IMG/VR virus record: IMGVR_UViG_3300050034_000334
DNA length: 64,000 nucleotides
From: a virus
Taxonomy: Duplodnaviria > Caudoviricetes
Reading direction: 5' to 3' (one strand)
Shown here: one piece after another, positions 844-24,067 of the stretch
Numbering within the stretch: the first letter of the stretch is position 1
How the letters are laid out: each line of letters opens with the position of its first letter
Notes under the pieces: generated by a model
Databases searched by the model: none
What the model was told of the DNA's origin: nothing
What the model saw: the letters and a program-made list of their open reading frames with translations, nothing else
Position numbers and translations under genes: made by a program

Positions 844-2895
844 ATGAAACAGTACCTCACACTTGCAGTTCTAGCTTTCTCTCTTCCGATGTGGGCTCAG
901 AGCACGGTTGCAACCGGAGACTCTAGAACAGTCACTGAGCCCATCTTTCCGTCAATCTGTGCAAGAGTGAATGCAACAAAGTACATCAAGCAGACGACTG
1001 CTGTGAACATTGATCCCTGGAATTCAACATGTGGATCTACTGGAGGAACCTTTGGGATTCTCTGGTGCACTGGAGGCACGGATTATCAGCCCTCGTCTTC
1101 GTCGAGCAGCTATGTCTCGGCGGAAACTCTGGACAACACGGCTGTACAGAATGCACTGAACTCTTGTCCCAGTGGTCAGGGAGTTGAATTGATCCCGGGC
1201 ACAAGTGGTCAAAATGCTTTCGTCCTCGCGCCGTTCAGCATCGTAAACAGTTCTGGAGCAGGAGTAAATCTCATTGTTGATGCAGGCATTCACGTGTTTG
1301 CCTCGCGCAATCTGTCTGACTACGGTGGCACCAACTGTGGACTGACAACTAACTCTACCAGTGATTGCAATCACTGGATCACTTCGCCCAGCACGACTGG
1401 CGCTGGCATCTATGGCTATGGAGTGCTTGATGGACGTGGATGGTCTGCTTACATCGGGCAAACAACTCATGGATTCTATGCCAATCGCATTCTAGCCTAC
1501 TGTGATGCTCATGGTGGAGCCATAGCTGGATCTCCCGGTTGCCCGAACACAACTTCTGGTGTGAACTCTTACGGGCCAAACGGGATCAATCTGATTGGCA
1601 CAACCAATTTCACCATGTACAAGATCTCATTGTGGAACAGTGGAAACTTCCTTATTAACTGGCAGAGTGGCAATGGGTTCACTGCCTGGGATGTGAAGCT
1701 GATCGCTCCGTTCGAAGTTTCGAATACGGATGGTTGGGATCCTCTCAACTCGACTAATGGTACGTTCACTCACAGCTTCATAAGTGTTGGTGATAACCAT
1801 ATGGCTGTGAAAGCAACATCAGGAGCTTCCTCCAACATCACGTTCTCAAATTCGCAAACCGGCGCTGGAATTGGAGTGGCAATTGGCACGAATGCTACAA
1901 ACGGGATATCCAACGTCCTGGTAGATACTTTGGTGCAAAATGGAAATCTCTACAGCACTCAGAGCGCAGGAATAATGATTGGATCGAGCACCGCAGACGG
2001 TGGCCTTGTCAACAAAGTGACCTATCGGAACGTCTGCATGGTGAACGAGTACAACTCGATTCGTTTATACACCAACTATGGCGGTAACACTGGGTCAAAT
2101 ATTCCTGTCTATCAAAACATCCTGCTGCGTAACATCACTGTGTTGCCCAGTACTGCTCCCTACACCACAGGCAACTCAGGCAGATATACCTTCCAGGGAT
2201 TAAGTGGACATCCAATAATTGCCCAAATCGACAACTTGCACATCCTGGGTACAAATCAAGGTGTCGCTGCTCAGTCAGGAGTAACGACTGATCAGTACTC
2301 GGCCATATACCTTGGTCCTGGGACGGTCGATTCCACGCTTCTAACCCAGTTTTCTGGTGGTACAGGAGTCACTACCTCTGGATCCACCACTTCCACTACG
2401 CAGTACGCTTGCACCAGCACAACCTGGCAGCCACTGATTGGCGAATTGAACATCAAGACTTCGGTTTCCAACAACAATCAAACAGCGACTGTGATAGCCT
2501 TGGCTCCGTTCACCCTACAGGCCGTCCTACAGCCATCGACAGCAATCAGCACAAAGGAATCTCCGGCTCTCACAGCCTCAGTGAATTTCTATGACAATTG
2601 TTTCACAACTCCGACAAGTTGTTCACCAATCGGAACTGTTGCGCTTTCAGGAGATGGGACATATGCTGCCTATACTCTATCCAGCGGAACTTCACTGGGA
2701 ACTCACAACTACATAGCTTATTATCCAGGAGATTCGAATTATCCAGCATACACATTTGGATCAGTCACGGTCACTGCAGTAACAGCGCCACCTGCTGCAA
2801 AGTCGTATGCACCCATTGTGATTGGTGAATTGGTGACCCCGGCAGGTTTCGAACCTGCGACCCTCTGCTTAGAAGGCAGATGCTCTATCCACTGA
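844..2895 (+). CDS. Secreted glycoside hydrolase family 28 (polygalacturonase-like beta-helix) with C-terminal Ig-like domain
   Basis: Signal peptide MKQYLTLAVLAFSLPMWAQ; GDSRTVTEP start; IYGYGVLDGRG; NTDG motif; Big_3-like tail (NYIAYYPGDSNY). Last 65 nt overlap tRNA-Arg antisense. Confidence 0.85.
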   Translation: MKQYLTLAVLAFSLPMWAQSTVATGDSRTVTEPIFPSICARVNATKYIKQTTAVNIDPWNSTCGSTGGTFGILWCTGGTDYQPSSSSSSYVSAETLDNTAVQNALNSCPSGQGVELIPGTSGQNAFVLAPFSIVNSSGAGVNLIVDAGIHVFASRNLSDYGGTNCGLTTNSTSDCNHWITSPSTTGAGIYGYGVLDGRGWSAYIGQTTHGFYANRILAYCDAHGGAIAGSPGCPNTTSGVNSYGPNGINLIGTTNFTMYKISLWNSGNFLINWQSGNGFTAWDVKLIAPFEVSNTDGWDPLNSTNGTFTHSFISVGDNHMAVKATSGASSNITFSNSQTGAGIGVAIGTNATNGISNVLVDTLVQNGNLYSTQSAGIMIGSSTADGGLVNKVTYRNVCMVNEYNSIRLYTNYGGNTGSNIPVYQNILLRNITVLPSTAPYTTGNSGRYTFQGLSGHPIIAQIDNLHILGTNQGVAAQSGVTTDQYSAIYLGPGTVDSTLLTQFSGGTGVTTSGSTTSTTQYACTSTTWQPLIGELNIKTSVSNNNQTATVIALAPFTLQAVLQPSTAISTKESPALTASVNFYDNCFTTPTSCSPIGTVALSGDGTYAAYTLSSGTSLGTHNYIAYYPGDSNYPAYTFGSVTVTAVTAPPAAKSYAPIVIGELVTPAGFEPATLCLEGRCSIH

Positions 2896-2906
2896 GCTAC
2901 GAGGCC
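2831..2906 (-). tRNA. tRNA-Arg(TCT)
   Basis: GGCCTCG...TCTGC-CTTCTAA-GCAGA...TTCGAAA...CGGGGTC-A-CCA cloverleaf. Confidence 0.97.
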
Positions 2907-3136
2907 ACGACTTCTTCAGGTAATGGATCGCGGCAATACTGCCTTAGATTCCGATCACAAGACCCGATGCTCTTGTAATTTATCCTACCCTCTCGCAGTG
3001 TCATGTGATTGCAATCACTGGGAGTGTCCTCATTCTCGAGACATTCATCTTCCCAGTAGCACACTGGACAGATTTCATACACATGACGCACGTCTTCGAG
3101 AGTGTGATTACCGCAACAAGGACAAGGAAATAGCAT
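2897..3136 (-). CDS. CPCC cysteine-rich protein
   Basis: CPCCGNHTL...EICPVCYWED...N..TL.E.R.NY motif. Confidence 0.85.
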   Translation of the reverse strand: MLFPCPCCGNHTLEDVRHVYEICPVCYWEDECLENEDTPSDCNHMTLREGRINYKSIGSCDRNLRQYCRDPLPEEVVAS

Positions 3137-3149
3137 GTCTCACCAAACT

Positions 3150-3226
3150 TGGTGACCGTGGAGGGGATTGAACCCCCGACCTGCGGTTTAGGAAACCACC
3201 GCTCTATCCAACTGAGCTACACGGTC
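3150..3226 (-). tRNA. tRNA-Arg(CCT)
   Basis: GACCGTG...GTGGT-TTCCTAA-ACCGC...CACGGTC-A-CCA. Confidence 0.96.
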
Positions 3227-3387
3227 ATGCCTAACTTCTCTTTCAGGTACTCTCTCATCTGATACACTTCGTTCGGCTTGCACCAGATGTACACCGGACC
3301 CGTTGGTGCGGGTATAAGGCTCTCAGCAAATGCTCTTTGGAGCATCTCCAACGTGATATCTCCCGCATTGGATTGTTTCAGTTCCAT
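3217..3387 (-). CDS. Small hypothetical protein (MELKQSNAG...)
   Basis: ATG after tRNA-Lys; the longer track ORF 3217..3528 runs through the tRNA. Confidence 0.45.
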   Translation of the reverse strand: MELKQSNAGDITLEMLQRAFAESLIPAPTGPVYIWCKPNEVYQMREYLKEKLGMTV

Positions 3388-3395
3388 GGATGTTA

Positions 3396-3471
3396 TGGTG
3401 CGCCCGAAGGGACTCGAACCCCCAACCAACTGGTTAAAAGCCAGATGCTCTGACCATTGAGCTACGAGCGC
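3396..3471 (-). tRNA. tRNA-Lys(TTT)
   Basis: GCGCTCG...TCTGG-CTTTTAA-CCAGT...CGGGCGC-A-CCA. Confidence 0.97.
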
Positions 3472-3783
3472 ACAGTGCGTTTGCCAGGCTCGTCTGAAGG
3501 TTTTCGCATTGTGACACTCCTCTCTCAAAACTGATCTTAGAACCGGATCAGGGATTCCGGCAGGTTGTTAGCTGATCCGGTTCCTCGATTGATCAGGAGC
3601 GTTGAACTAGGTTTACCGAACTAGACGATCCGGATTACATGAGCACGGAGTGCTCGATGCGCGAATAGCCTCATCCTCTGTCTGAACCTCTACCTGAACA
3701 ACTCTCCTGAACCTCTAAACTTGGGGCCGAATCGCCTCGTGCACAGACGATATCTACCTCCGACTCGGCCAACATCGGTCATC

Positions 3784-4314
3784 TCAATAGAACAGGTACT
3801 TCTTCCACTTTTCCATGCCGGCACCCATAGAACGAATCAGGTTCCGGTTGGTGTGAATGGTCAATGGACGAGGGTAGCGAATCAGTTTCATGTCCTTGAT
3901 ATCGCTCAGATCCCTGTCGCCCTTCTTCTGGTTGCAAGCCTGACAAGCCGTGACCAGGTTCTCCCAGCAGTTCCTTCCACCCTTGGACTTCGGTACAACG
4001 TGGTCCCAGGTGAGATTCTTTGCTGAGAACTGAACACCGCAGTACTGGCAGGTGTAACCGTCGCGAAGGTAGATGTTCCGTCTGCTCAACTCCTGCTGAC
4101 GGTGTGGCACCTTCCGGTACTTCACCAGCCTGACTACGCAAGGAAGAAAGAATCCTGGACGAACCAAGAGGTCATACTCTTCCTCAGACTTGGCAACTCC
4201 CTTGATTACCATGCACAGTGCCCGCTGAGCACTCGCATAGCGCAGCGGCTCGTAACTGGCATTCAGTACGAGAACCGGAGTCGACTTGATGAGAGTGTTG
4301 GTTGCGGACAACAT
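3784..4314 (-). CDS. HNH endonuclease (McrA-like)
   Basis: VLVLNASYEPL start; RDGYTCQYCG...TWDHVVPKSKGG...WENLVTACQACNQKK; RBS AAGGAAA. Confidence 0.92.
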   Translation of the reverse strand: MLSATNTLIKSTPVLVLNASYEPLRYASAQRALCMVIKGVAKSEEEYDLLVRPGFFLPCVVRLVKYRKVPHRQQELSRRNIYLRDGYTCQYCGVQFSAKNLTWDHVVPKSKGGRNCWENLVTACQACNQKKGDRDLSDIKDMKLIRYPRPLTIHTNRNLIRSMGAGMEKWKKYLFY

Positions 4315-4374
4315 GGTGGTTTCCTTTCTTGAAAAATGGTGGAGGATCGGTCCGGAATGACTTCACCCCCAAGT

Positions 4375-5001
4375 TCAGGCTGCCGACTTGATAGAGTCTA
4401 AAATTCTCACACATCTGGTCAAGTACCTGCTTCCTGAAGAATCACTCAATCCGACTTTTCTTAATGCTTGAGAAACAGTTTCAGACGTTCTTAGAGCTTC
4501 AAGCAACTGTTCATCTGAAATTCTTCCTTCGCTACTTCTACCCACTTTGTTTCCGCAATAGGTGGGCAACTGACTGTCACAATTGGGACAAATACCTCTG
4601 AAGTTACTGCGAGAATTGTTGGATCGCACACCATCTATGTGATCTAGCCGAAGAGATATGGGTTTTCCATTCCACTCGTCAATCCCACAGATTAAGCACT
4701 TTCCTCCTTGTTCCCTTACAACCCTTTCCTTCTTACTGCCATACCCTAGATCTTCAAAGGGAGTAGCAGCTGATCTGGCGAGTATCTTGGCAGCCCGTTT
4801 CTTTATCGCCTCTGCTGACTGAGAATTTTCTCGAAAGGTGACGTACTTTTCATGATGTTCGGAGTACGCCTTCCTGCTCTTCTCACTCCTGCTCCGATTT
4901 ACCTCCGGAGTCCAGGTCCTTGAATGACTACATTTGGAAGAGCAGAAATTTCCTTCTCCGTATGAGCCATCATGTTCCTTACCACACTTCTTGCAGATCA
5001 T
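4375..5001 (-). CDS. HNH homing-type endonuclease with N-terminal Zn finger
   Basis: CKKC..HDGSYG.G.FCS..C start; CLICG...LRLDHIDG...N.R.ICPNCDSQ. Confidence 0.9.
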   Translation of the reverse strand: MICKKCGKEHDGSYGEGNFCSSKCSHSRTWTPEVNRSRSEKSRKAYSEHHEKYVTFRENSQSAEAIKKRAAKILARSAATPFEDLGYGSKKERVVREQGGKCLICGIDEWNGKPISLRLDHIDGVRSNNSRSNFRGICPNCDSQLPTYCGNKVGRSSEGRISDEQLLEALRTSETVSQALRKVGLSDSSGSRYLTRCVRILDSIKSAA

Positions 5002-5006
5002 TCTAA

Positions 5007-5031
5007 GGGACTCCTTATACTAAAGAATCCC
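5007..5031 (-). promoter_or_regulatory. Hairpin occluding the RBS of the HNH gene
   Basis: GGGATTCTTTA-GTA-TAAGGAGTCCC; AAGGAG lies in the 3' arm, 9 nt before the ATG at 5001. Confidence 0.55.
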
Positions 5032-5042
5032 CTAGTTCAAAT

Positions 5043-5120
5043 TGGTCGCAGTGAAGGGATTTGAACCCCCGACATCTTTCTTATGAGGAAAGCGTTCTCA
5101 CCAGGCTGAACTACACTGCG
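5043..5120 (-). tRNA. tRNA(CAT), probably elongator Met
   Basis: CGCAGTG...CTTTC-CTCATAA-GAAAG...CACTGCG-A-CCA; lacks initiator features; Met versus Ile2 is tentative. Confidence 0.9.
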
Positions 5121-5155
5121 ATTTATTCTTCGAACTACACTGCGATTTATTCTTC
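5108..5155. repeat. Exact 24-bp tandem duplication
   Basis: GAACTACACTGCGATTTATTCTTC twice (5108-5131, 5132-5155); includes the first 13 nt of the tRNA. Confidence 0.95.
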
Positions 5156-5490
5156 GTCATTTCCGTTCATCAAGTTTCTCCTGGTGGCATTCCAAACACT
5201 TCTGCTTGAGAGGCCACTCGTTGTTACACGTCGTGACCTCTGTTGAGTTGCATGAAGGACAGTGAATCGAGGCCTTATCCAGCCATGCGAGCAGTTCCTG
5301 AAACTTCCTGTCGTCCTGCATATTCGGCCTTGATGTACTCAACTTCCTTGCTGTTGCAACTCTCGAGCTTCCGCCCGACCTTCCAATCCTTCTTGCGCTG
5401 CTCGATGACAAACTGAGTCCAAGTGTAAGAAGACGAGTAACTCGACTTCTCCTCGTAGCAGCGGAACCAAAGACCGTTGAAGTTCAAATA

Positions 5491-5766
5491 CTATCCGTCA
5501 TACCACGAACGAGGGACCTCCCCACCTGGGAGACTTACCTGCAGTTCTTGACAGATGAACCTTGCAACATCTTCCGGATGGACTTCTCCGTCGCTCGTCT
5601 TCTTCCAGCGACCCCGGTCGATGTTGTCTTGTGACAAACCCATCAACTCACTCAAATCCTTGTGATGCATCCGACCATCCGGAAATCTCACGAACAAGTC
5701 GGCCTTGCCAATCTTGAAGAGGAACGTCACTCCTCGAACTACGATCCTACGCATGCGGGACTTCAT
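5491..5766 (-). CDS. Hypothetical protein
   Basis: ORF with an RBS, co-oriented with the array. Confidence 0.6.
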   Translation of the reverse strand: MKSRMRRIVVRGVTFLFKIGKADLFVRFPDGRMHHKDLSELMGLSQDNIDRGRWKKTSDGEVHPEDVARFICQELQVSLPGGEVPRSWYDG

Positions 5767-5937
5767 GAGGACCTTTCAGTGTCTTTTCCATCCTGGAGAA
5801 GCACCCTTCGAGTTGAATCAACGCCACGACACCAACTACAGCCAGACTGACAAACATCCCCACTAAACATCCGAACAGAAAGGCAAGATGCACCAGAGCG
5901 GAAATCTCATCAGGGTTCATGCCATTCTGATACTGCG

Positions 5938-6129
5938 TTTCGCTTCTCCAGCGAACTTTTACCTGCTGCGAGAGAGAGACGGACGGTTGTCGATACGTTT
6001 CAACCCACGCTCAAAAGAGCGACATTTGATCGAGGCCAGGTGCCGGTTGACAATCCACCACGTGCCTCTTCCCAGGATAGACGCGCCTCTCCGATCAGGA
6101 CTGTTCCGACCACCGGAGACTACCCTAGA
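5938..6129 (-). ncRNA. Candidate structured ncRNA
   Basis: Series of hairpins: TCTAGGGTAG/CTATCCTGGG, TCTCCG/CGGAGA, GAGGC/GCCTC, CGCTC-TTTT-GAGCG, GGTTG/CAACC, TTCGC/GCGAA. Confidence 0.45.
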
Positions 6130-6137
6130 CTAAACTT

Positions 6138-6545
6138 TCACCACTCGAAGTCCTTTGCAAGATGAACATTCTTCACCTGCATATTCTTCGTCGGAGTAAA
6201 TCTAAGTGTCACAGTTCCGCCTCCTTGAAATTGTTGGATCGGTAACCAGTAGCACTTTTCTGTAGCGGGCAAGTAAGCAACTACCACATCAATCTCTTCA
6301 GACGTGTACTTCTTCTTGTATCCGCTATTTCGGCATTCAGCCGATAGACCCACTTCAACAGAATCCTTCGTCAAGCTACAGCTGCAATACTTCACTTGAA
6401 CCCTGAGAAGTTCCTTTCCGTTGTCGACCACCAAGTCGTACCTGGCGTCTACAGAAGGAACGCTCACAATCCATCCCAACTCGGTGGCTCGGAGCATGAC
6501 TTTCAGCTTTCCGATCTCACCCTTTTGATGAGTGCTTGCTAGCAT
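6138..6545 (-). CDS. PD-(D/E)XK endonuclease (group I intron-associated family), free-standing
   Basis: KGEIG...RYDLVVD...LRVQVKY...Y...EIDVVVAYLP...CY. Confidence 0.88.
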   Translation of the reverse strand: MLASTHQKGEIGKLKVMLRATELGWIVSVPSVDARYDLVVDNGKELLRVQVKYCSCSLTKDSVEVGLSAECRNSGYKKKYTSEEIDVVVAYLPATEKCYWLPIQQFQGGGTVTLRFTPTKNMQVKNVHLAKDFEW

Positions 6546-6567
6546 ATCTCATCAATACTCAAAACTT

Positions 6568-6643
6568 TGGTGCGAGCGGAGGGGATCGAACCCCCGACGT
6601 CCCGGTTAAGAGCCGGTTACTCTACCAACTGAGTTACGCTCGC
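6568..6643 (-). tRNA. tRNA-Lys(CTT)
   Basis: GCGAGCG...ACCGG-CTCTTAA-CCGGG...CGCTCGC-A-CCA. Confidence 0.96.
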
Positions 6644-6744
6644 ACATCTACAAAAAGGCTCTCCGGGGAGGTGGGCCATCCCTCCATACACTCCTCGCGA
6701 AAGAGAGTGTGTCTTGCCACTATGAAACGACCGGAAACTTACAA

Positions 6745-6932
6745 ATTCAACGCCGGTGCTCTATCCAGGCTGAGCTACCACCAAGCGAATGGACCGTTCC
6801 GCCGACCTTGATTCCCCTCTAGAAAAGGAATCCTGGGACTCTTAGGGCATGGTCACTTGCTCTGTCTAAACGGGTGGGTTGGATTCGGACCAACGACCAC
6901 CGGCTGCTTGTTGGGCGGAATGATCACACCCG
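6745..6932 (-). ncRNA. Permuted tRNA-like element (T arm before D arm) or tandem tRNA remnants
   Basis: GCCGGT-GGTC-GTTGG-TCCGAAT-CCAAC-CCACCCG, then ~85 nt, then TTGGTGG-TA-GCTC-AGCCTGGATA-GAGC-ACCGGC. Confidence 0.5.
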
Positions 6933-6938
6933 AATCTT

Positions 6939-7013
6939 TGGCTCCTGAGGAGGGATTCGAACCCACAACCATTCGGTTAACAGCCGAACGCTCTGCCGTT
7001 GAGCTACCCAGGA
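6939..7013 (-). tRNA. tRNA-Asn(GTT)
   Basis: TCCTGGG...TTCGG-CTGTTAA-CCGAA...CTCAGGA-G-CCA. Confidence 0.97.
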
Positions 7014-7020
7014 ACACTTG

Positions 7021-7215
7021 TTATACTGCAACTTCCTCAATCTCGATCTGAACCTTCTTGCTGCTCATCACTTCGTCAGCAACACCGAAGGCAACCTCAT
7101 AATCCTCAAATCTGGTTGCCTCGTAGCGATATCCAAACCTCAAAGTGCGGGTGATCGCAGCATCGTCTGAGATGACATAGTTCGATGTATTCGGTACTCT
7201 CAAGATGTGCTGCAT
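7021..7215 (-). CDS. Small hypothetical protein
   Basis: ORF with RBS GGAGTAGAGGG between tRNAs. Confidence 0.55.
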   Translation of the reverse strand: MQHILRVPNTSNYVISDDAAITRTLRFGYRYEATRFEDYEVAFGVADEVMSSKKVQIEIEEVAV

Positions 7216-7261
7216 GACCTTACCCTCTACTCCGATTTATGAGATCGGGTACTGCTGAATT

Positions 7262-7337
7262 TGGGGAGTCTAGAGGGATTCGAACCCTCGACTACTGGTG
7301 CCACAGACCAGCGTTCTACCGCTGAACTACAGACTCC
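7262..7337 (-). tRNA. tRNA-His(GTG)
   Basis: G-1 and C73 present; CTGGT-CTGTGGC-ACCAG; CCA end. Confidence 0.96.
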
Positions 7338-7348
7338 ATGAAATTGTT

Positions 7349-7422
7349 TGGCTGCCTCTGTAGGATTCGAACCTACATATCCTGGTCCAGAGCCAAGTGT
7401 CCTGCCATTGAACGAAAAGGCA
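7349..7422 (-). tRNA. tRNA-Gln(CTG)
   Basis: TGCCTTT...CTTGG-CTCTGGA-CCAGG...AGAGGCA-G-CCA. Confidence 0.96.
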
Positions 7423-7442
7423 ACATGTGAAACCGAACTTGT

Positions 7443-7522
7443 TGGGCAGGAACGGTGGGAATCCATTGACCTCCTGGTTGGAGCCAGAAGGCGTGGAAAC
7501 CCATTCTTCCGCTGAACTGCCC
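7443..7522 (-). pseudogene. Degenerate tRNA-like element (Trp-like loop)
   Basis: GGGCAG/CTGCCC ends; D-like TTC-AGCGGAA-GAA; CTGG-CTCCAA-CCAG arm; T loop and CCA defective. Confidence 0.5.
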
Positions 7523-7524
7523 GA

Positions 7525-7692
7525 CCGGGCAATGACTTCTAAGCTACATTCGCCGAAGCGAATGCTGGTCAACCTTCTCACCAGATCCCCGCCGTTGAAG
7601 GCGGTGCTTTGTTCGGACTCGCCACGGAGGTTCCAGCCTCATGGGTCTGTCCTGGTCTAGTCGCACTGGCCCCTGGAAGGTCCATTGCCCGG
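7525..7692 (-). ncRNA. Candidate multibranched ncRNA (~170 nt)
   Basis: Closing helix CCGGGCAATG/CATTGCCCGG; internal CATTCGC-TTCG-GCGAATG (cUUCGg), CCGCC/GGCGG, GAGG/CCTC. Confidence 0.55.
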
Positions 7693-7925
7693 AAACTTTA
7701 TTGCACGAACGAAAAGTAGACTAAGAGGCGGTGCAAACTACTTGATGAACAATCCGTCAATCACGCTCTTGGCTTTGTCTTCCGTTCTGACATAGTTCCG
7801 GACCACGTAGGTCTCGGCTATGATGCGAAAGCCGCCATCTCGTAAAGGATGAATCGTATACCCGCGATATATTGTGTCTTCCATACGAATCTCTACTGGA
7901 AAACCCAGCATATCGGTTAATCTTT

Positions 7926-8000
7926 TGGCGGGAAATAGAGGAATCGAACCCCTGAGTTCTGATTTGGAGGCAGACAGTTTACCAACTAGCTTAATTTCCC
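7926..8000 (-). tRNA. tRNA-Trp(CCA)
   Basis: GGGAAAT...CTCCAAA loop...ATTTCCC-G-CCA. Confidence 0.92.
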
Positions 8001-8040
8001 GTTGAATCCAGACTTTCGGAACCATTACTGGAGGTTCCAA

Positions 8041-8571
8041 TTGAAATCTTGCGAAAATTGCACTACTCTTCACGATGGTACTTATGGTTCTGGTCGTTTC
8101 TGTTCAATTGGCTGTGCTAGAGGCTTTGCCACCAAAGCATCTAGGTTAAAAATCAACCAAGAAGTGAGTGCTAAACTGAAGGGTAAACCTGTTCGTAATC
8201 GTAGTCCTCATAGTAAAGAAGTGAAGGAAAAGATACGCAGAAGCATCAATCAAGGATTTCAAATCAAATTCCAAAAGTGGATAGATGACTGGCTTTCCGG
8301 AAAGATACATCCCACAAGAGCCAACTATAGAGTAGTGCACAAAGCATTAGCCATTTTAAGAGGAGATAAGTGTGAACAATGCGGTTGGAAAGAGGTTCAT
8401 CCGAAAACTGGACTTATCCCAGTGCAACTTCATCATATTGACGGTGATGGAGATAACAATTCACCAGATAATGTGAAACTGTTGTGTCCAAGCTGTCATT
8501 CACTCACTCTCAATTTCATGGCTTTGAACTACTACAACAAATTGTCAAAGATCACGCCGTTGTTCGCCTGA
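8041..8571 (+). CDS. HNH homing-type endonuclease, antisense to the tRNA array (start uncertain; track ORF from 8002)
   Basis: CENC..HDGTYGSGRFCS..C start as in 4375..5001; CEQCG...QLHHIDGDGDNNSPDNVKLLCPSCH. Confidence 0.88.
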   Translation: MKSCENCTTLHDGTYGSGRFCSIGCARGFATKASRLKINQEVSAKLKGKPVRNRSPHSKEVKEKIRRSINQGFQIKFQKWIDDWLSGKIHPTRANYRVVHKALAILRGDKCEQCGWKEVHPKTGLIPVQLHHIDGDGDNNSPDNVKLLCPSCHSLTLNFMALNYYNKLSKITPLFA

Positions 8572-8588
8572 GCGAATCAATTCAAACT

Positions 8589-8665
8589 TGGTCGGGCCAC
8601 TAGGGTTCGAACCTAGGACCTTGGGATTATGAGTCCCTTGCTCTAACCAACTGAGCTATGGCCCG
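8589..8665 (-). tRNA. tRNA(CAT), probably Ile2 (lysidine type)
   Basis: CGGGCCA...GGGA-CTCATAA-TCCC...TGGCCCG-A-CCA; resembles ileX-type tRNAs; identity tentative. Confidence 0.88.
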
Positions 8666-8693
8666 AACTCGAACTCGGCTCGTGCAAAAACTT

Positions 8694-8770
8694 TGGTGAT
8701 CCCGGAGGGAGTTGAACCCCCAACCTTATGGTTCGTAGCCATACGCGCTATCCAGTTGCGCCACGGGACC
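8694..8770 (-). tRNA. tRNA-Arg(ACG)
   Basis: GGTCCCG...TATGG-CTACGAA-CCATA...CGGGATC-A-CCA. Confidence 0.96.
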
Positions 8771-8789
8771 ACTCTCAAAATCCATCCCT

Positions 8790-8825
8790 AAAAACCAAAT
8801 CCCGCCAGCTTGTGGGCTTGGCGGG
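8790..8825 (-). terminator. Intrinsic terminator of attenuator A, directly upstream of tRNA array A
   Basis: CCCGCCA-AGCCCACAAGC-TGGCGGG followed by ATTTGGTTTTT. Confidence 0.85.
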
Positions 8826-8852
8826 TGGAAACTCTGAAAATACCAGGTAGGA

Positions 8853-8948
8853 TTACGCACTACCTCCAGAATCCAGACCGCCGATGGCATGCTGATTTCG
8901 CTGCCACTGCTTATGCTGTCTCATCGAATTGGTCTGTATCTGTTTCAC
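8853..8948 (-). CDS. Leader peptide of attenuator A: MKQIQTNSMRQHKQWQRNQHAIGGLDSGGSA (31 aa, GTG start)
   Basis: RBS AAGGGAG 4 nt before GTG; 17 of codons 2-20 are K/Q/I/N/M/R/H/W; 3' part pairs with the terminator 5' arm. Confidence 0.85.
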   Translation of the reverse strand: MKQIQTNSMRQHKQWQRNQHAIGGLDSGGSA

Positions 8949-9010
8949 AGTACTCCCTTGACAAATTTCATAATACTACGGTTTCCTCTGATCGGGGAAA
9001 CTATTTTTGC

Positions 9011-9134
9011 CAGTGATTACGGAATCCTTTGTAACAAAACACTCAACCATGAAGGATTCGAACCTTCGCTATGAATGCACCCAATCATGACACTGTTCAG
9101 CACCAGGGGTCTACAAAGGATTCCGTAATCACTG
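9011..9134 (-). ncRNA. Promoter-proximal hairpin RNA with a perfect 23-bp stem enclosing a tRNA T-arm remnant
   Basis: CAGTGATTACGGAATCCTTTGTA (9011-9033) and its exact reverse complement (9112-9134); loop contains GAAGG-TTCGAAT-CCTTC. Confidence 0.6.
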
Positions 9135-9144
9135 TACATTACAC

Positions 9145-9172
9145 TCTACCGAACAACTTCTCAAAACGGTTA
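9145..9172 (-). promoter_or_regulatory. Phage promoter motif TAACCG-N16-GGTAGA
   Basis: Exact motif match upstream of the hairpin and leader A. Confidence 0.75.
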
Positions 9173-9426: not shown

Positions 9427-10500
9427 TCATCGGTCAGTTGGGCATCGGCCATCGTTCAGACGAAGAGTGAACTGAGCGATATGAACTGGCTCATTCTCTT
9501 TGATGGCCTTCTGCCAGTAGAACTGATACTGACTGGCGTAACCTGCCAGCTGGGCATCCTCCAGTGTGAACTTCACAAAGGGGATGAGATTTTTGCCTCC
9601 CTCGATGCCGAACAAACGGGGACCAAGAGCCTTCCTGATTCTGGCATAGGTGTAGCTGATGTAGATGCCAGGACTGGTGACGTTGCACCAGTTCTCAATG
9701 TCGAGGATGGTGTTCTTCCCGACTGCAGCTGAGTTGAACTGCCAGGCCAGGACGTTCCATGCCAACTGAGGAGAGACTACAGCGTTCTCGCTGGGCTTGA
9801 TCACCTTGCTAACTTCTTCGAACAGTTCCTCAGCCGCCACAAGGTTCGCTTCTGCTCCCTCCTTCTCCCGGGAGCGCATCTTCTTGTAGTCCTTGCCCAG
9901 AACCAGACCCATCGGCTTGTGCTGATCTCCCAATCCCAGGCTCTTGAAATGTTCGTGTTGCTCATACCCTGTCAGATATAAGTCCGGAGCACAGAATTCT
10001 ACGAAGCTCAGATCGTGTGCTGCATAGGTTGGACGACCGTCAGAGCGGTATATCACGACACCGTTGAACATCTTACAGCCTTCGTACTCTCCGGTGCCGG
10101 GAGTCAGTGTGTATCCTGTGGGCGGCTTCATGTCCCTATCAAATAAGATGAATGGCTGATATCCGGAGATGTGACACCAGTTGTTGAATGCCGTGTACGC
10201 TCCCTCTTTCTCGCCAATGGTGACTCCCAGCATTGCGACTGGCTTGGCTTTGGTGATATTTGCCAGCGCGGCGGCGATTGCCAGGTTCTTGATGTGCCCG
10301 ACATGAAGGTCTTTGTTGAGGTTAGGTGAGAATCCATCCAGAGTTATCTCGGATGGTTTGGCTTTCTCAGGCCATTCCCAGACGGTTGGCGTTACATGGT
10401 AGTTGTGGTAAATACCCACAGATTCATAACGAAATCCCTTGAGATCGAGTGGAGTGAGTGAAGTGACACCAACTCCCACTTGTTCAGGTATAGGATGCAT
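9427..10500 (-). CDS. argS: Arginyl-tRNA synthetase, reduced and C-terminally truncated
   Basis: SPNLNKDLHVGH (HIGH), YRSDGRPTYAAHDL, KKMRSRE, PGIYISYTYARI, start of DALR domain (NEPVHIAQFTLRL) then an abrupt end. Confidence 0.85.
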   Translation of the reverse strand: MHPIPEQVGVGVTSLTPLDLKGFRYESVGIYHNYHVTPTVWEWPEKAKPSEITLDGFSPNLNKDLHVGHIKNLAIAAALANITKAKPVAMLGVTIGEKEGAYTAFNNWCHISGYQPFILFDRDMKPPTGYTLTPGTGEYEGCKMFNGVVIYRSDGRPTYAAHDLSFVEFCAPDLYLTGYEQHEHFKSLGLGDQHKPMGLVLGKDYKKMRSREKEGAEANLVAAEELFEEVSKVIKPSENAVVSPQLAWNVLAWQFNSAAVGKNTILDIENWCNVTSPGIYISYTYARIRKALGPRLFGIEGGKNLIPFVKFTLEDAQLAGYASQYQFYWQKAIKENEPVHIAQFTLRLNDGRCPTDR

Positions 10501-10554
10501 GAGATCTTCCTCTCCAACCACATTCTACCAGAAGATGCCGGAATAAGGCTAGTT

Positions 10555-16464: not shown

Positions 16465-16465
16465 C

Positions 16466-16784: not shown

Positions 16785-16786
16785 TC

Positions 16787-16883: not shown

Positions 16884-16898
16884 GTCAATGGAGAAACA

Positions 16899-17962: not shown

Positions 17963-17964
17963 GA

Positions 17965-18819: not shown

Positions 18820-19106
18820 ATTGGCCATTTTCTGAGTTTGGCAGTATTGGGCAAACGCATGGAGGAATCTCAGTCATGCGGCGGAAGATGATTCAGCCCA
18901 CGAAGGAGATATACAAGCTGGCATTGGAGCTTGCTTGCCGAAACGCTGGAAAGAATTTTCAGTACAATCGTGACGCTGGATATTACATTCAATGGGCTGA
19001 ACGGATCATCACTGAAAAGGAAAAGAAGAAAACCTTAAAAACTTGAATCCCCAGTATCATAGCGATGGAGCCGTTGCTCTACAAATCAAACTGAGGATAA
19101 TCCAAA

Positions 19107-19379
19107 ATGTCGACCACACCAGTCGTACCTATTGGCCCACCTGAAAAGGTCAAGCTGTCACCCTCCCAACAGAAGTATGTCGCCCTCCTACAGAAGAAAG
19201 TCCTCGACTACCAGGCCTCGGCTCAGTCCGAACTGAATCGCTTGACCGGTCATCTGCAGGACGCCCTGGCCTATGTCCGCGAAGAGCTCGGAATTCCGGA
19301 GGGTCATCCGTATTCCCTGACTGAAGATGCTTCGCATCTGGTCCACACTCCTCCTCCCGCTCCAACAACCGAACAGTAG
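19107..19379 (+). CDS. Hypothetical protein
   Basis: RBS GAGGA; ORF. Confidence 0.55.
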   Translation: MSTTPVVPIGPPEKVKLSPSQQKYVALLQKKVLDYQASAQSELNRLTGHLQDALAYVREELGIPEGHPYSLTEDASHLVHTPPPAPTTEQ

Positions 19380-19674
19380 AGGTGGAATACGTGGTGCTCA
19401 TTCTCCTAGTTTGCGGGTTGGCCGGTCTCTTCTTAGGATTTGGAGTGATCTCAGGAGTCTATTTGGCGCAATGGGTATGGAAGAAGCTGCGCCAACCCAC
19501 GGAGAGGGAGATGTATGTCTGGGAATGTTGTGTGTGCCGTTATCGAGTGCAGTCAAATCACGACCTTCACATCAACGATAGACTGATTTGTGTGCAATGT
19601 AATGCTGAGATGGAGCCTTACGTTCCAAAACAGCAGTCTGATGCTACAACAGTCGTTCTCAGCTAAGGAAAGTC

Positions 19675-19881
19675 ATGCCCTTTCCCAAAACATTTGATGA
19701 CCTCAAAGCAGCCGGATACACTTTCCTGGACGATGCCACTTGTCGGGATTGCGGAGAAGAGATAGAGTGGTGGGAAACTCCCAATGGGAAGAAGATGCCC
19801 ATCGACCACATGACTCGTGGTTCTGATCCTGTTAGAGTTCATTTTGACACCTGTGCAGAGAGATCCGACGACAAATGGTGA
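19675..19881 (+). CDS. Small Zn-ribbon hypothetical protein
   Basis: CRDCG.EI.W..T.NGK.MPID...H..TC. Confidence 0.65.
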   Translation: MPFPKTFDDLKAAGYTFLDDATCRDCGEEIEWWETPNGKKMPIDHMTRGSDPVRVHFDTCAERSDDKW

Positions 19882-20441
19882 GCGAAGAACTGTTCCCGAG
19901 ATGAGGAGGCTGAAATGGGTGGTGGACCAGAATGCAGCGTTGAATCGGTGAGAATGTACTTGTATGGAAATATAGAAGGTCCTGGAAAAACCCAGTATCA
20001 GAGGCAAAGCAGTAAAATTGATCACCAGGAGTTTCCCATGGACTTTAGTTCACTTTCGTCGAATTCCGTTATTCGCTTTGCCGCCACAATGATTGCTGTA
20101 GATCATGGAGAGAGCAATCTCAAGACCGACAAAAAAGAGGTTCGGAGAGAGGTTCTCGATCTGGCCAAGAAGTTGACCGGATTGAAACACAGCAAGCTGA
20201 TGACCGCTGATCGCATCTATATCAACTCTACCTTGACACCTACAATGGCAAGGATGAGTACGACAGCCGAGTCAATGACAATCCCGAACTTTGGGAAGAC
20301 TTCTGTGTTCGGCTTTATCGTGTAACCAACTAGCAGGATTGCATCGAGGGACCGCAGGGTGCTCACAAGTACAGTCGAAGGCTAACATCCGGGAGTTGTG
20401 GTCCAGGACCAAGCGGCTGACTGCGGTTCGCCAAAGGAGCA

Positions 20442-20748
20442 TATGGACGAGTTGTTCAGAATCGATGAGAATGGGCAGAAGTGGGTCACCGCTACTGATG
20501 GGAAAGAGTACAAGGTGACCGGGTATCCTGGCCAAGTGAAGTCAGGATACATGTGTGCTGTTGATTTCCAGCATGAGGTCGGAGAGGCTCCCCAAACCGG
20601 ACCAATCTGTGCGAGTCTAGAGAGTTTGTTTGCGGCGAAACCCTGCATCTCAGAATGCGGCTGGGTTCGAGTTCTCGTGATCGGAGTGGAGTTTGGGAAG
20701 CCAACAGTGGATCTCACTGTCCCAGAGAAAGAGCCAACTATCCAATGA
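20442..20748 (+). CDS. Hypothetical phage protein
   Basis: RBS AAGGAG before the ATG at 20442. Confidence 0.55.
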
Positions 20749-21889
20749 GCTATATGCAATTCCAGCAGCGTTGCAAAGCCTGTCAGAAGTCCTGGAACGC
20801 TGCGTTTGGAATTGTCCCTCTGGATCGATTCATGGAGGCTATCATCATTCGTGATACGCGCTGGCTCGGGCAGGAACGCCGCAAGGCTGAGCGCAGAAAA
20901 GGGGAACTGTGAGCTGCTCTTATCACAAAGAAGGTTGTGCATCTACTGGACAAGTGATTGGCGGAAAGTGGATTTGCCTTAATCATATGCCCGGCGAATT
21001 TAACGCCCTGCAAGCCTCACACGAGGAACTGGTAAAGGCGCTGAAAGAGGCGCGGGGTTACCTCGCCAATTATTCGCGCAGGGAAATGTGGGGAACCGAT
21101 GGCGACGACGATGTAAAACACGCTCAGGACGTTATTGTTGTCGCCCTAGCTAACGCGGCGAAGCTGGCCCCAACCCGTACCCAACCCGTACCAAAAGTGA
21201 GGCGAAATGACTGCTCTACTAGTCCTGTCCGCGCCCACCATGTTGGCCGTGGCTGTCGTTATCTTTGTCTACGTCTCCGGCCTGTGCCGGGGGAAGAAGG
21301 GTGCGCTGTGATTGGTGACGACTTCCACTCTCATCTTGACGAATGCCAACGGTGCAGAGAGGACGTATTTAATCTCTGTCCTGTAGGAATCAAACTCCTA
21401 ACAGACGCAGTGAAGACCATCGATGATCCCATGATGCGCGGACTTGTGCAGTGGAATCACATCGTACAAAGGGAGGACCGCAATGCCAGTTGAACGTCTC
21501 GACAAACTGATGATCGATGCGACCGGCCATGGCTACTACCAAGCAGACGACGCCGATCCCGACGAGGCCGTTACGCCCTATGCCAAAGCACGTGCCAGGG
21601 AGGATGCGCTACTAAAGGCGCTGAAAGCAGTTCTGGATCTCCACTGCTCTATGGATATGGGCGAAACTTCTACGCAAGCGCGGCTACTCATCCGCGAGAT
21701 CAAGGCCACCCGATGACACTCCGCAACGGCTCCTGGACCAACCGAACCGACCCGATGTACGACCACTCCCACGAGTACCGTTCATCCACTGTACCGCGTC
21801 GTTACGTTAACGGAACCACCATTTTCTGCGCTATTATTCTAGTTGTGTGGGGAATCGTAATCATTTTCAAGCACTAAAAAAGGAGAAAT

Positions 21890-22144
21890 ATGGCAAACGA
21901 ATTAACGATTATCAACCCAATGACCATCGGCAAGGAACTTCAGAAGTACGAAGTTCAAATGGAAAAGGCTTTGCCGCTTCATATGTCAGCGGCAAGAATG
22001 GCGAGAATTGCGCTTACATCCTTGCGTGTTAACCCAAAGTTGTGTGGCTGCACACGAGAATCATTTTTTGGTTCCTTGATGGCTGCTTCGCAAAGTCATC
22101 AGAGGGCCGTCAGGCATTGGCGGAGGGAATCAGATTTGAACTGA
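21890..22144 (+). pseudogene. recT: RecT-family recombinase, N-terminal fragment
   Basis: KALPLHMSAARMARIALTSLRVNPKLCGCTRESFFGSLMAASQ, then breaks at ~22095 and collides with tRNA-Ser. Confidence 0.8.
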
Positions 22145-22205
22145 TGGAACCTTTCGGTTCGGCACGTTAGCAGTGTGCTGGATTAAACCGCTCTCCCATC
22201 CCTCC
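22118..22205 (-). tRNA. tRNA-Ser(GCT)
   Basis: GGAGGGA...CTGCTAA...long variable arm GAACC-GAAA-GGTTC...TCCCTCC-G-CCA. Confidence 0.96.
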
Positions 22206-22216
22206 GTTGTAAACTT

Positions 22217-22299
22217 TGGTGCCCAGAAAGGGGATCGAACCCTCACGATTTCTCAACGGTTTTTAAGACCGCAGCGTCTGCCAGTTTCGCCATCCGGGC
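22217..22299 (-). tRNA. tRNA-Leu(TAA)
   Basis: GCCCGGA...GCGGT-CTTAAAA-ACCGT...TCTGGGC-A-CCA. Confidence 0.96.
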
Positions 22300-22647
22300 A
22301 CGAACCTTACCTGTGTTTCTTCCACAAAATGTGAGAAGTTGACTGTCGCAGTTGGGACAAACCTTTCTCATGTTCTCCCGACGGCAATCTCGCTTTCTCC
22401 CATTGATGTGGTCAATTCTCATTACCAGAACTTGACCGTTCCACATTCCTGTCAAGCCACAGATCGTACAAACTTCTGGAAGTTCTTCTCTGAATCGATC
22501 TTTGGCTGCTTGTAGATGTTCAGAGTTGTCTACAAACACCACAGAGTCTAATAACTTGAGTCTGTGAGATGTCGTGCCAGGTTTCCAAGGTTTTCCACCT
22601 GGCACTCTTCTGGAATCAAATCCATTGCTAAATGGCTTTCCACTCAT
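22243..22647 (-). CDS. HNH homing-type endonuclease; 3' end reads through tRNA-Leu(TAA)
   Basis: CTICGLTGMWNG...RIDHING...ENMRKVCPNCDSQ; last 57 nt lie inside the tRNA. Confidence 0.88.
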   Translation of the reverse strand: MSGKPFSNGFDSRRVPGGKPWKPGTTSHRLKLLDSVVFVDNSEHLQAAKDRFREELPEVCTICGLTGMWNGQVLVMRIDHINGRKRDCRRENMRKVCPNCDSQLLTFCGRNTGKVRARMAKLADAAVLKTVEKS

Positions 22648-22680
22648 GCTTCTTAGAATACTGCCATCTAGGCTTCAACC

Positions 22681-22917
22681 TCACAAGTTGTTCCACCACC
22701 AGGGCATGCCGGGAGGAGGCACTCTGCCCCTTGTTTTACGAGGTGAATTGCCCCGTTCCCCAGTCTTGCCGATTTGAAAACTAATACTCGAGCCATGTTC
22801 TGACAATGGCTGCACAAAATCGGGTGCTCCAAATGAGCGTGGTCTACAGGAAACTTCACTAGATTGGCCATTCTCATTCTCCTCAGTGATTATGGTTCGG
22901 ACAGTAATCATGTCCAA
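22681..22917 (-). CDS. Hypothetical protein
   Basis: ORF between tRNAs with RBS AGAGTAGGG. Confidence 0.4.
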   Translation of the reverse strand: MDMITVRTIITEENENGQSSEVSCRPRSFGAPDFVQPLSEHGSSISFQIGKTGERGNSPRKTRGRVPPPGMPWWWNNL

Positions 22918-22976
22918 ACCCTACTCTTTGTTGAACTGCATGAAAGGTCAAAGTAGCTCTCTGCAGCTTAATCTTT

Positions 22977-23061
22977 TGGTGCCGATGGCCGGGATCGAAC
23001 CGGCACGCCCGAAGACACTGGCTTTTGAGACCAGCGCGTCTTCCAATTCCGCCACATCGGC
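22977..23061 (-). tRNA. tRNA-Leu(CAA)
   Basis: GCCGATG...CTGGT-CTCAAAA-GCCAG...CATCGGC-A-CCA. Confidence 0.97.
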
Positions 23062-23075
23062 ACATTTCAAACCTT

Positions 23076-23160
23076 TGGTGCCCGATAAGAGACTCGAACT
23101 CTCACGCCTTGCGACAACAGATCCTAAGTCTGCCGCGTCTGCCAATTCCGCCAACCGGGC
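23076..23160 (-). tRNA. tRNA-Leu(TAG)
   Basis: GCCCGGT...GCAGA-CTTAGGA-TCTGT...ATCGGGC-A-CCA. Confidence 0.97.
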
Positions 23161-23173
23161 ACTTACTAAACTC

Positions 23174-23329
23174 TTGTACGAACGAATGACGAGATGGGAA
23201 ATGCCTTTCGGCTACCGCTGCCTTTGCCAGCTTGGCTACTCCCCGTCATGGTCGGGGAGACAGGACTCGAACCTGTGAAGACTTTCGTCGGCGGTTCCAA
23301 GATAACCCACTACTCTACGGCTCGTACAA
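23174..23329 (-). ncRNA. Circularly permuted tRNA-like RNA (Y RNA/YrlA-like candidate)
   Basis: Order: ACCGC, variable arm, T arm (ACAGG-TTCGAGT-CCTGT), CTCCCCG-ACCA-TGA-CGGGGAG, D arm (GCC-AAGCTGGCAAA-GGC), GCGGT, GCCGAAAG; ends pair TTGTACGA/TCGTACAA. Confidence 0.75.
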
Positions 23330-23333
23330 AACT

Positions 23334-23422
23334 TGGTCGGGATGAAGGGAGTCGAACCCTCACGCTACTTGATTTCGCTCGTGGACCTGAACCACGCGTG
23401 TCTGCCATTTCACCACATCCCG
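23334..23422 (-). tRNA. tRNA-Leu(CAG)
   Basis: CGGGATG...CGTGG-TTCAGGT-CCACG...CATCCCG-A-CCA. Confidence 0.96.
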
Positions 23423-23441
23423 AAACTCTACTTCAAAACTT

Positions 23442-23528
23442 TGGTCGGAGCGAAGGGATTCGAACCCTCCCGATGTTGCCACCATGAGCACCTCAAGCTC
23501 ACGCGTCTGCCAGCTTCGCCACGCTCCG
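23442..23528 (-). tRNA. tRNA-Leu(GAG)
   Basis: CGGAGCG...TGAGC-TTGAGGT-GCTCA...CGCTCCG-A-CCA. Confidence 0.96.
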
Positions 23529-23534
23529 ACATCT

Positions 23535-23750
23535 TCAAACTTCTGTTCTCACACTCTTGGGGAGATCCAACCCCCATCCACGTTGAATATTCTCCGAGTC
23601 CGTGGTCATGAACAACTCTTTGACCTTCCATCGGTCACTCGGATCCTTATCAAGATCTACCTCAACACCGGGCCTCAGTCGACGGTCAGCAGGCAGCCAG
23701 GTGATCATGTGGCTAGTTCCCTGTTGGATTAGTGCCTGAATCAGCTTCAC
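23535..23750 (-). CDS. Small hypothetical protein
   Basis: GTG start after tRNA-Tyr with RBS GAAAGGAA. Confidence 0.5.
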   Translation of the reverse strand: MKLIQALIQQGTSHMITWLPADRRLRPGVEVDLDKDPSDRWKVKELFMTTDSENIQRGWGLDLPKSVRTEV

Positions 23751-23769
23751 GGTGTTCCTTTCAAATCTT

Positions 23770-23861
23770 TGGTGCAAGCGGAGGGATTTGAACCCCCAAT
23801 GTTAGCTGCTAGAGCGGCAGATTTACAGTCTGCTGCGACCAACCGTATTCGCCTCGCTTGC
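23770..23861 (-). tRNA. tRNA-Tyr(GTA)
   Basis: GCAAGCG...GCAGA-CTGTAAA-TCTGC, long variable arm, CGCTTGC-A-CCA. Confidence 0.95.
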
Positions 23862-23862
23862 A

Positions 23863-23891
23863 CAAACAAAAACCACTCCCGGAGGAGTGGC
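23863..23891 (-). terminator. Intrinsic terminator of attenuator B, directly upstream of tRNA array B
   Basis: GCCACTCC-TCCG-GGAGTGGT followed by TTTTGTTTG. Confidence 0.9.
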
Positions 23892-23918
23892 TCTTGTGAA
23901 CTTGGTTTTGAGGTCGTC

Positions 23919-24011
23919 TTATATGCCTCTCCACCTTGCCACAGAGCCACTCGGCAAGCTAAGGTAATAGCTTGACAGTGACGGGGACGAAGATAGAGAC
24001 AGTAAACGCAT
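23919..24011 (-). CDS. Leader peptide of attenuator B: MRLLSLSSSPSLSSYYLSLPSGSVARWRGI (30 aa)
   Basis: RBS GAGG 9 nt before ATG; uses all six Ser codons, five different Leu codons and both Tyr codons; GAGTGGCTCTGTG pairs with the terminator 5' arm. Confidence 0.9.
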   Translation of the reverse strand: MRLLSLSSSPSLSSYYLSLPSGSVARWRGI

Positions 24012-24039
24012 GACGAAATTCCTCACTCTTACATGATAC

Positions 24040-24067
24040 TCTACTGAGCGGAAAAGTAAAGCGGTTA
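24040..24067 (-). promoter_or_regulatory. Phage promoter TAACCG-N16-AGTAGA driving leader B and tRNA array B
   Basis: Exact motif match 28 nt upstream of the leader ATG. Confidence 0.8.

Follow-up and report, generated by a model that had tools for sequence, protein, structure and literature searches.

Predicted leader-peptide attenuators precede tRNA gene arrays in a Caudoviricetes genome, and leader composition co-varies with tRNA cargo across phages

The stretch of DNA analyzed here, hereafter the window, comprises 64,000 nucleotides of a virus from the class Caudoviricetes (Duplodnaviria; IMG/VR record IMGVR_UViG_3300050034_000334). It corresponds to bases 15308-79307 (minus strand) of the 187,058-bp viral record, which has an estimated completeness of ~60% (CheckV), the full genome being expected to measure ~310 kb. 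The same DNA is present in many peat, permafrost, and freshwater metagenomes and metatranscriptomes. Two arrays of tRNA genes, A and B, lie on the minus strand of the window, each behind a short open reading frame (ORF), the leader, and an intrinsic terminator. The composition of each leader mirrors the amino acids served by the tRNAs that follow. The arrangement reads as a ribosome-mediated transcription attenuator, and the arrays are probably controlled by leader-peptide attenuators belonging to the phage's own tRNA operons.

Both modules share one anatomy. A sequence-only reading had placed each array behind a ribosome binding site, a leader of 30-31 codons, an antiterminator arm (segment 2), and a terminator ending 1-20 nt before the first tRNA; coordinates and RNA folds agree with this description. 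The features, in window positions, are as follows.

8970..9011, minus strand: promoter-like motif A, an A-rich GGCAAAAATAGT element, 18 nt, CCGTAG, then a -10-like TATTAT, from which we infer the transcription start site
8853..8948, minus strand: leader ORF A, 31 codons, GTG start, AAGGGAG Shine-Dalgarno sequence 4 nt upstream
8889..8945, minus strand: control codons of leader A (codons 2-20), KQIQTNSMRQHKQWQRNQH; 17 of 19 decodable by array A tRNAs, assuming that one of the two CAU tRNAs is tRNA-Ile2
8868..8883, minus strand: antiterminator arm A (segment 2), complementary to the 5' arm of terminator A
8790..8828, minus strand: intrinsic terminator A, a GC-rich hairpin plus ATTTGGTTTTT, -16.8 kcal/mol, ending 19-20 nt before tRNA-Arg(ACG)
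2831..8770, minus strand: tRNA array A, 11 tRNAs (ARAGORN and Rfam) with interspersed homing-endonuclease ORFs
24033..24083, minus strand: promoter-like motif B, a GGGAAAATAGT element, TTTACT, 16 nt, TATCAT
23919..24011, minus strand: leader ORF B, 30 codons, ATG start, GAGG upstream
23949..24005, minus strand: control codons of leader B (codons 3-21), 17 of 19 Leu, Ser, or Tyr
23939..23953, minus strand: antiterminator arm B (segment 2), CGAGTGGCTCTGTGG, pairing with the 5' arm of terminator B
23862..23897, minus strand: intrinsic terminator B, GAGCCACTCC-TCCG-GGAGTGG then TTTTTGTTTGT, -16.6 kcal/mol, ending 1 nt before tRNA-Tyr
22118..23861, minus strand: tRNA array B, seven class II tRNAs, namely Tyr, Leu-GAG, Leu-CAG, Leu-UAG, Leu-CAA, Leu-UAA, and Ser-GCU (ARAGORN and Rfam)

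Array A runs in the order Arg-ACG, CAU, Trp, Gln-CUG, His, Asn, Lys-CUU, CAU, Lys-UUU, Arg-CCU, and Arg-UCU. The match to leader A is confined to the control run, as the other 11 codons correspond to array A nowhere. A scan of one metagenome recovered two near-identical peat strains, too few for structural co-variation, with a single substitution in leader A (T6A), which falls on one of the two non-matching control codons. In leader B, 17 of the 20 residues at codons 2-21 are Leu, Ser, or Tyr, and a cognate codon is found for each of the five Leu anticodons as well as for Tyr and Ser-GCU. Array B supplies cognate anticodons for only 11 of these 20 control codons, as it contains no tRNA for the six TCN Ser codons; a search of array B for additional Ser(TCN) tRNAs found none. 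The homologous arrays of the nearest relatives by NAD-ligase similarity (44-46% identity) carry such tRNAs. These relatives are Tunturi_5 (PP885688.1, 308.7 kb), a cultured jumbo phage of Acidobacteriota, and a complete 299.9-kb IMG/VR genome labeled G001; both encode Ser-GGA and Ser-CGA, and G001 only also encodes Ser-UGA. Therefore, the phage studied here either lost these tRNAs, moved them, or holds them in the missing ~40% of its genome, or else its sensor also reads the host pool.

Elsewhere in the 187-kb record lie two further arrays, C and D, which bear on the prediction that other arrays of this genome would have matching leaders.

g153994-156223: array C, with Val, two Gly, Asp, three Ala, and two Glu tRNAs
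g153824-153928: leader C, 34 codons, control run VEFVGAVATVVAAEAAEGVD, 20 of 33 residues Val, Gly, Asp, Ala, or Glu
g181579-182182: array D, with Pro, Phe, Pro, and Pro tRNAs, preceded by a 19-codon ORF

Module C is a textbook case of the predicted arrangement, in which a 10+5-bp antiterminator (CTGTCCTTGG...GAATC) competes with a canonical terminator (antiterminator against shuffles, p = 0.005). Array D fits the prediction in part. In its leader, every one of the three Pro anticodons is represented by one codon and Phe by two, yet Arg accounts for another five, and folding revealed no canonical terminator before the array. The promoter motif of leader A recurs before leader C, and related motifs precede leaders B and D. 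Upstream of array D, a peptide-deformylase-like gene with an HEIDH motif (g180480-180738) ends ~840 nt before the first tRNA and ~590 nt before the promoter-like motif.

The leaders stand out from other short ORFs of the same record. Among 3,017 of these, leader B ranks 1st for enrichment in Leu, Ser, and Tyr, leader C ranks 4th for the array C set, leader A ranks 10th for that of array A, and leader D reaches a modest 77th. The ORF ranked best for the array A set is merely the C-terminus of a peptide-deformylase-like gene. Against random amino acid sets of equal size, the empirical P value (P_emp) is 0.001 for leader B and 0.0085 for leader A, and the observed pairing of leaders with arrays is the best of the 24 permutations possible in this genome. 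Enrichment relative to array content, a test put forward in the sequence-only reading, is borne out at the level of amino acids in both modules of the window.

The test was extended to five genomes, in which 94 gaps of 110 nt or more precede a tRNA. Of these, 29 contained a terminator of -10 kcal/mol or lower, and three lacking an ORF were dropped, leaving 26. The best upstream ORF in each gap was scored for enrichment in the downstream amino acid set against 2,000 random sets of equal size subjected to the same maximization; ORF choice was automated and blind to the expected composition. In 20 of the 26 gaps P_emp was below 0.1, and Fisher's combined P was 3.6e-20. When the true set was compared with all 26 real sets, it came 1st in 11 modules and among the top three in 20, with a mean rank of 4.8 against 13.5 expected (P <= 1e-5).

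Geometry is similarly constrained. Across 20 modules, 249 of the 268 residues in the control runs are ones served by the array. Median ORF length is 30.5 codons; spacing is ~4 nt from the end of the control run to segment 2, ~15 nt from the end of segment 2 to the stop codon, and ~24 nt from the stop codon to the terminator stem. In most of these modules segment 2 lies 39 to 5 nt before the stop, and in three short leaders it extends up to or into the stop codon. A complement of the terminator 5' arm in the last third of the ORF outperforms 200 dinucleotide shuffles in 15 of the 20 modules (median z = -3). In modules A and B the stop-to-stem distance is 24 and 25 nt, respectively; the equal spacing described earlier therefore holds, the previous figure of 27 nt having used its own stem boundaries.

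In seven phage genomes, differences in array content are accompanied by matching differences in leader composition, an observation that addresses the earlier proposal that homologous arrays without such leaders, or leaders indifferent to their arrays, would speak against attenuation. Tunturi_5 has three tRNA clusters, each behind a short ORF and a terminator, and the composition of each ORF fits its cluster. For instance, LCLSSYCLSSSLSLS precedes Leu, Cys, Leu, Leu, Tyr, Leu, and three Ser tRNAs, while in the 49-codon gp308, annotated as hypothetical, 37 of 48 residues belong to the nine amino acids of its 16-tRNA cluster. The pairing of leaders to arrays in Tunturi_5 is the best of six permutations. 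In G001, matching leaders lie before blocks for Tyr/Leu/Ser; Trp/His/Lys/Arg/Asn/Gln; Gln/Thr/Cys; Pro/Met; and Val/Ile/Phe/Gly/Glu/Asp. LR756504.1 and LR745206.1, uncultured phages of ~635 kb each that are visibly AT-rich (the phage of the window has a G+C content of ~51%), carry at least 12 modules. In these ~635-kb phages a pure-Gln leader (QQIQQQQ) precedes three tRNA-Gln genes.

Individual gains and losses follow the same pattern. Among the homologous Leu/Ser/Tyr arrays, only that of Tunturi_5 contains a tRNA-Cys, and its leader has two Cys codons; the G001 array gains Ile-UAU together with an ATA codon present only in the G001 leader. Phe occurs in both array D and leader D, and in neither the Pro array of G001 nor its leader. 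The basic-residue array of G001 includes an Ala tRNA, with Ala codons in the leader, and has no CAU tRNA, with no Met or Ile codons in the leader. Ala is abundant in leader C and absent from the equivalent G001 leader, whose Ala tRNA lies upstream; this G001 leader also gains Phe and Ile. In LR756504.1, two modules are nested in one array, and the second leader drops Asp once tRNA-Asp is upstream.

A sample of five classical tRNA-rich phages was also scanned (Atu_ph07, CcrColossus, T5, KVP40, and XacN1). Modules were found in Atu_ph07 (MF403008.1 339118-339246) and CcrColossus (JX100810.1 68151-68243), cultured phages of unrelated lineages. In the CcrColossus leader, all 14 codons from 3 to 16 (YRNNVRQIRVRQFN) correspond to the array, which consists of Tyr, Phe, Val, Ile, Ile, Val, Gln, Gln, Asn, Arg, and Arg. 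Other searches added no close relatives. Phage-collection DNA searches with both leader regions returned matches to tRNA segments only or none, and a tRNA 5' motif search returned unrelated phages only.

Some further features of these genomes touch on leaders and arrays. Many leaders of very distant phages start with MKT(I/V)N..., MTT..., or MKQI... before the control run, as seen in L008, L016, L019, L022, and L025 (G001, LR756504.1, and LR745206.1), in Tunturi_5, and in the genome studied here. Such shared starts may have been selected convergently because they favor efficient initiation, or they may act as a spacer allowing the ribosome to move off the start site. At L023:1071 in LR745206.1, a tRNA-Met directly follows the promoter and precedes the leader-terminator module by which the remaining tRNAs of the array would be gated; this tRNA-Met, possibly an initiator, would be made constitutively. 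ARAGORN also calls suppressor-like tRNAs reading stop codons, with anticodons UUA and UCA in G001 (L008:1772, L014:955) and two with CUA in XacN1 (L033:7148, 7231).

Alternative pairings were examined by folding. Terminators A, B, and C have energies of -16.6 to -16.8 kcal/mol, all with a U-tract; a pattern-based scan missed A and B, and ViennaRNA folding was used instead. In masked folding, the antiterminator duplex of module B (-19.9 kcal/mol against a shuffled mean of -10.1, p = 0.01) forms while codons 1-16 are occupied by the ribosome, and occupancy of codons 18-27 prevents it. A ribosome on codons 1-14 of leader C gives an equilibrium terminator probability of mostly 0.01-0.05 (at most 0.13), against 0.54-0.66 with the ribosome on late codons or absent. 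The same switch logic appears in module B in transcripts truncated before segment 4. Pairing of segments 1 and 2, a candidate protector or pause hairpin that would cause termination of transcripts with an untranslated leader, is present in the minimum-free-energy folds of B and C.

Transcripts from the environment cover the locus. Both arrays are covered far more extensively than the genes on either side by contigs from four RNA libraries of peat and permafrost, one of which, spanning 7731-8874, crosses terminator A into the tRNAs.

Taken as an attenuator, each module would work as follows. A sigma-70-like promoter would start the transcript, and a ribosome would translate the leader of ~30 codons. 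With rapid decoding of the amino acids that the array serves, the ribosome would reach the last third of the ORF and cover segment 2, so that segments 3 and 4 pair into the intrinsic terminator and RNA polymerase stops just before the first tRNA. Should any cognate aminoacyl-tRNA become scarce, the ribosome would stall in the control run and leave segment 2 free to pair with segment 3 as antiterminator, and polymerase would read into the array. The new tRNAs would then relieve the stall, a negative feedback on decoding capacity with one loop per array. Candidate triggers are host tRNA decay after shut-off, a mismatch in codon demand, and tRNA-cleaving defenses.

The last of these triggers leads to a more specific proposal, already part of the sequence-only reading. 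Phage tRNA sets have been proposed to compensate for codon usage or to replace tRNAs cut by host defenses. The attenuators might serve as inducible damage sensors, in which loss of one tRNA species to a host anticodon nuclease or another tRNA-depleting defense would stall the ribosome in the matching leader and switch on only the replacement array. This role is a tentative suggestion and on balance doubtful; if true, it would make the modules a modular, codon-addressed counter-defense circuit.

Several observations weigh against attenuation or narrow it. The sequence-only reading had each leader listing the codons of its own array, which stands at the level of amino acids (17 of 19 for A, 17 of 20 for B) and fails at that of isoacceptors: a preference for codons read by the array's own isoacceptors was not significant (33 read against 30.2 expected, P = 0.23), and mirroring at this level was rejected. 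The six TCN codons of leader B without a cognate phage tRNA belong here as well. Antiterminator A, at -15.8 kcal/mol (shuffled mean -11.8, p = 0.06), is marginal and weaker than those of B and C. In full-length equilibrium folds of A and B the terminator is always favored, and the switch would therefore have to be kinetic, as in trp. Leader C starts only ~10 nt past the -10-like hexamer, so that either its start codon or its transcription start site is uncertain. Canonical U-tract terminators are absent from some G001 modules, as from array D. The RNA data consist of contigs and are uninformative about 3' ends, levels, and regulation. Finally, the scan that detected modules in Atu_ph07 and CcrColossus detected none in T5, KVP40, and XacN1, which does not prove absence, and the device accordingly seems not to be universal.

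The modules without a U-tract give most room to a different output. Decoding speed could still be sensed, at least in these modules, while the outcome is decided by Rho loading on the untranslated tRNA transcript or by 5' processing through RNase P or RNase E via an alternative hairpin. Operons of tRNA genes are untranslated and hence natural Rho substrates. Besides array D, such an output would suit three modules of G001: L012 combines three-segment alternative pairing with a last hairpin that ends 8 nt before tRNA-Trp and has no U-tract, and L009 and L013 have weak tails. However, in A, B, and C and in ~20 modules of other phages the stop codon is followed at a fixed distance by a strong canonical hairpin with a U-tract, and this alternative appears improbable. 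Even less probable is a reversal of the logic, whereby efficient leader translation, aided by phage tRNAs, would open the RNA for read-through and create a positive, feed-forward loop instead of homeostasis. The antiterminator of module A, which in truncated transcripts forms with or without a ribosome on early codons, would be compatible with such a scheme. The order of elements argues against it: the control run lies upstream of segment 2, and in nearly all modules the stop codon comes ~15 nt past segment 2; a ribosome that completes the ORF would therefore mask the antiterminator. Late-codon masking indeed favors the terminator in C and B.

It could also be argued that the short ORFs arose by coincidence, or that their products are small functional peptides with no part in regulation, and that the terminators merely end upstream transcription units. 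Short ORFs are plentiful, as the 3,017 in 187 kb attest, and leader D taken by itself is only modestly enriched. Yet the combined probability across gaps makes this account statistically untenable, and leaders track array content from a genome of ~51% G+C to AT-rich ones and inside nested arrays. Coincidence would also leave antiterminator complementarity and the fixed geometry unexplained, and it is scarcely credible. Leader-peptide attenuation remains the favored reading of the modules.

Other elements lie around and within the arrays of the window. Just upstream of promoter A, at 9015-9145 (minus strand), a perfect stem of ~20 bp encloses a T-arm-like hairpin (AAGGTTCGAATCCTT). The fold has an energy of -47.3 kcal/mol (z = -4.9 against shuffles) and is tRNA-like, yet it is called by neither ARAGORN nor Rfam; it may be the terminator of the upstream gene or a permuted tRNA-like module. 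Directly upstream of array A, whose first tRNA is for Arg, a 364-aa ORF (9427-10521, minus strand) shows a weak local match to the HIGH catalytic region of arginyl-tRNA synthetase (ArgRS; Pfam PF00750, E = 4e-6; PDB 1iq0, E = 0.004). Its homologs in the phage collection are confined to the two ~635-kb phages, and a peptide-pattern search of IMG/VR with this ORF gave no match. HNH and PD-(D/E)XK endonuclease ORFs lie amid the tRNAs of both arrays (3784-4314, 4375-5001, 6138-6545, 8002-8571, and 22243-22647). They probably act as homing endonucleases and thereby drive the gain and loss of tRNAs. Right after tRNA-Arg, the sequences of two near-identical strains diverge. Inside the Leu array, 23220-23278 (minus strand) has weak YrlA-like and tmRNA-like Rfam matches.

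If validated, the modules would place ribosome-mediated attenuation on tRNA genes themselves as a direct homeostat of decoding capacity, and would explain how repertoires of 30-60 tRNAs can be carried without constitutive expression. Soil, water, and plant-associated hosts have all yielded jumbo or huge phages with the module. Since leader composition predicts cargo, it supplies a rule for delimiting tRNA operons, and as a readable manifest of their content it could help to assign odd tRNAs (CAU, UAU, suppressor-like, or permuted). For synthetic biology, the leaders would offer compact natural sensors of amino acid-specific, possibly codon-specific, elongation speed. Moreover, the question of why phages carry tRNAs becomes testable by asking which condition opens each attenuator, with CcrColossus in Caulobacter and Atu_ph07 in Agrobacterium as tractable systems.

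Large virus-encoded tRNA repertoires, arranged in arrays with homing endonucleases, are also found in T5, T4, and other phages. Demand-sensing regulation has, to our knowledge, not been described for the tRNA sets of T5, T4, or other phages, and T5 and KVP40 differ from the phages described here in having no such leaders in the scan. The earlier suggestion that attenuators on phage tRNA arrays were undescribed agrees with a check of the full-text literature, including the Tunturi and huge-phage papers and excluding subscription-only work, in which no such control of tRNA genes was found. T-box riboswitches likewise sense tRNA status and switch between terminator and antiterminator upstream of translation-related genes. 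Unlike the phage elements, which have start codons, in-frame control runs, and positioned stops, a T-box recognizes uncharged tRNA by direct contact, using one specifier codon and neither ribosome nor ORF. A T-box identity was rejected, as neither leader region matched RF00230, or any other riboswitch or leader family in Rfam, at E <= 1.

The phage modules resemble most closely the amino acid operon leaders of E. coli and Salmonella (trpL, hisL, leuL, pheL, and thrL). Both have a short translated (in the phage modules, putatively translated) leader with control codons, mutually exclusive antiterminator and terminator hairpins built from three or four segments, and an intrinsic terminator before the first regulated gene, with the position of a stalled ribosome deciding the outcome. 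In contrast to the trpL and hisL type, the phage elements are virus-encoded, are repeated once per array, lack an Rfam leader match, have control runs spanning up to nine amino acids, and precede tRNA genes; the molecule sensed would therefore be the product itself, a direct autoregulation. The ilvGMEDA (Ile/Val/Leu) and thr (Thr/Ile) leaders also mix several amino acids, shortage of any of which induces, though they combine two or three rather than one to nine and reflect a shared pathway, whereas the phage sets are defined by tRNA cargo. The pheST operon of E. coli, behind the pheM leader, places a translation component, Phe-tRNA synthetase, under a leader rich in cognate codons, and differs in that its target is the protein operon of a single-amino acid synthetase in a cellular genome. 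At the sequence level, the device has the leader, control codons, terminator, and antiterminator of classical leader-peptide attenuation, its closest counterparts being the multivalent ilv and thr leaders and the pheST leader. What is new is the tRNA gene as target, with the direct autoregulation this would entail, the breadth of the control sets, the modularity of one leader per array, and the viral setting.

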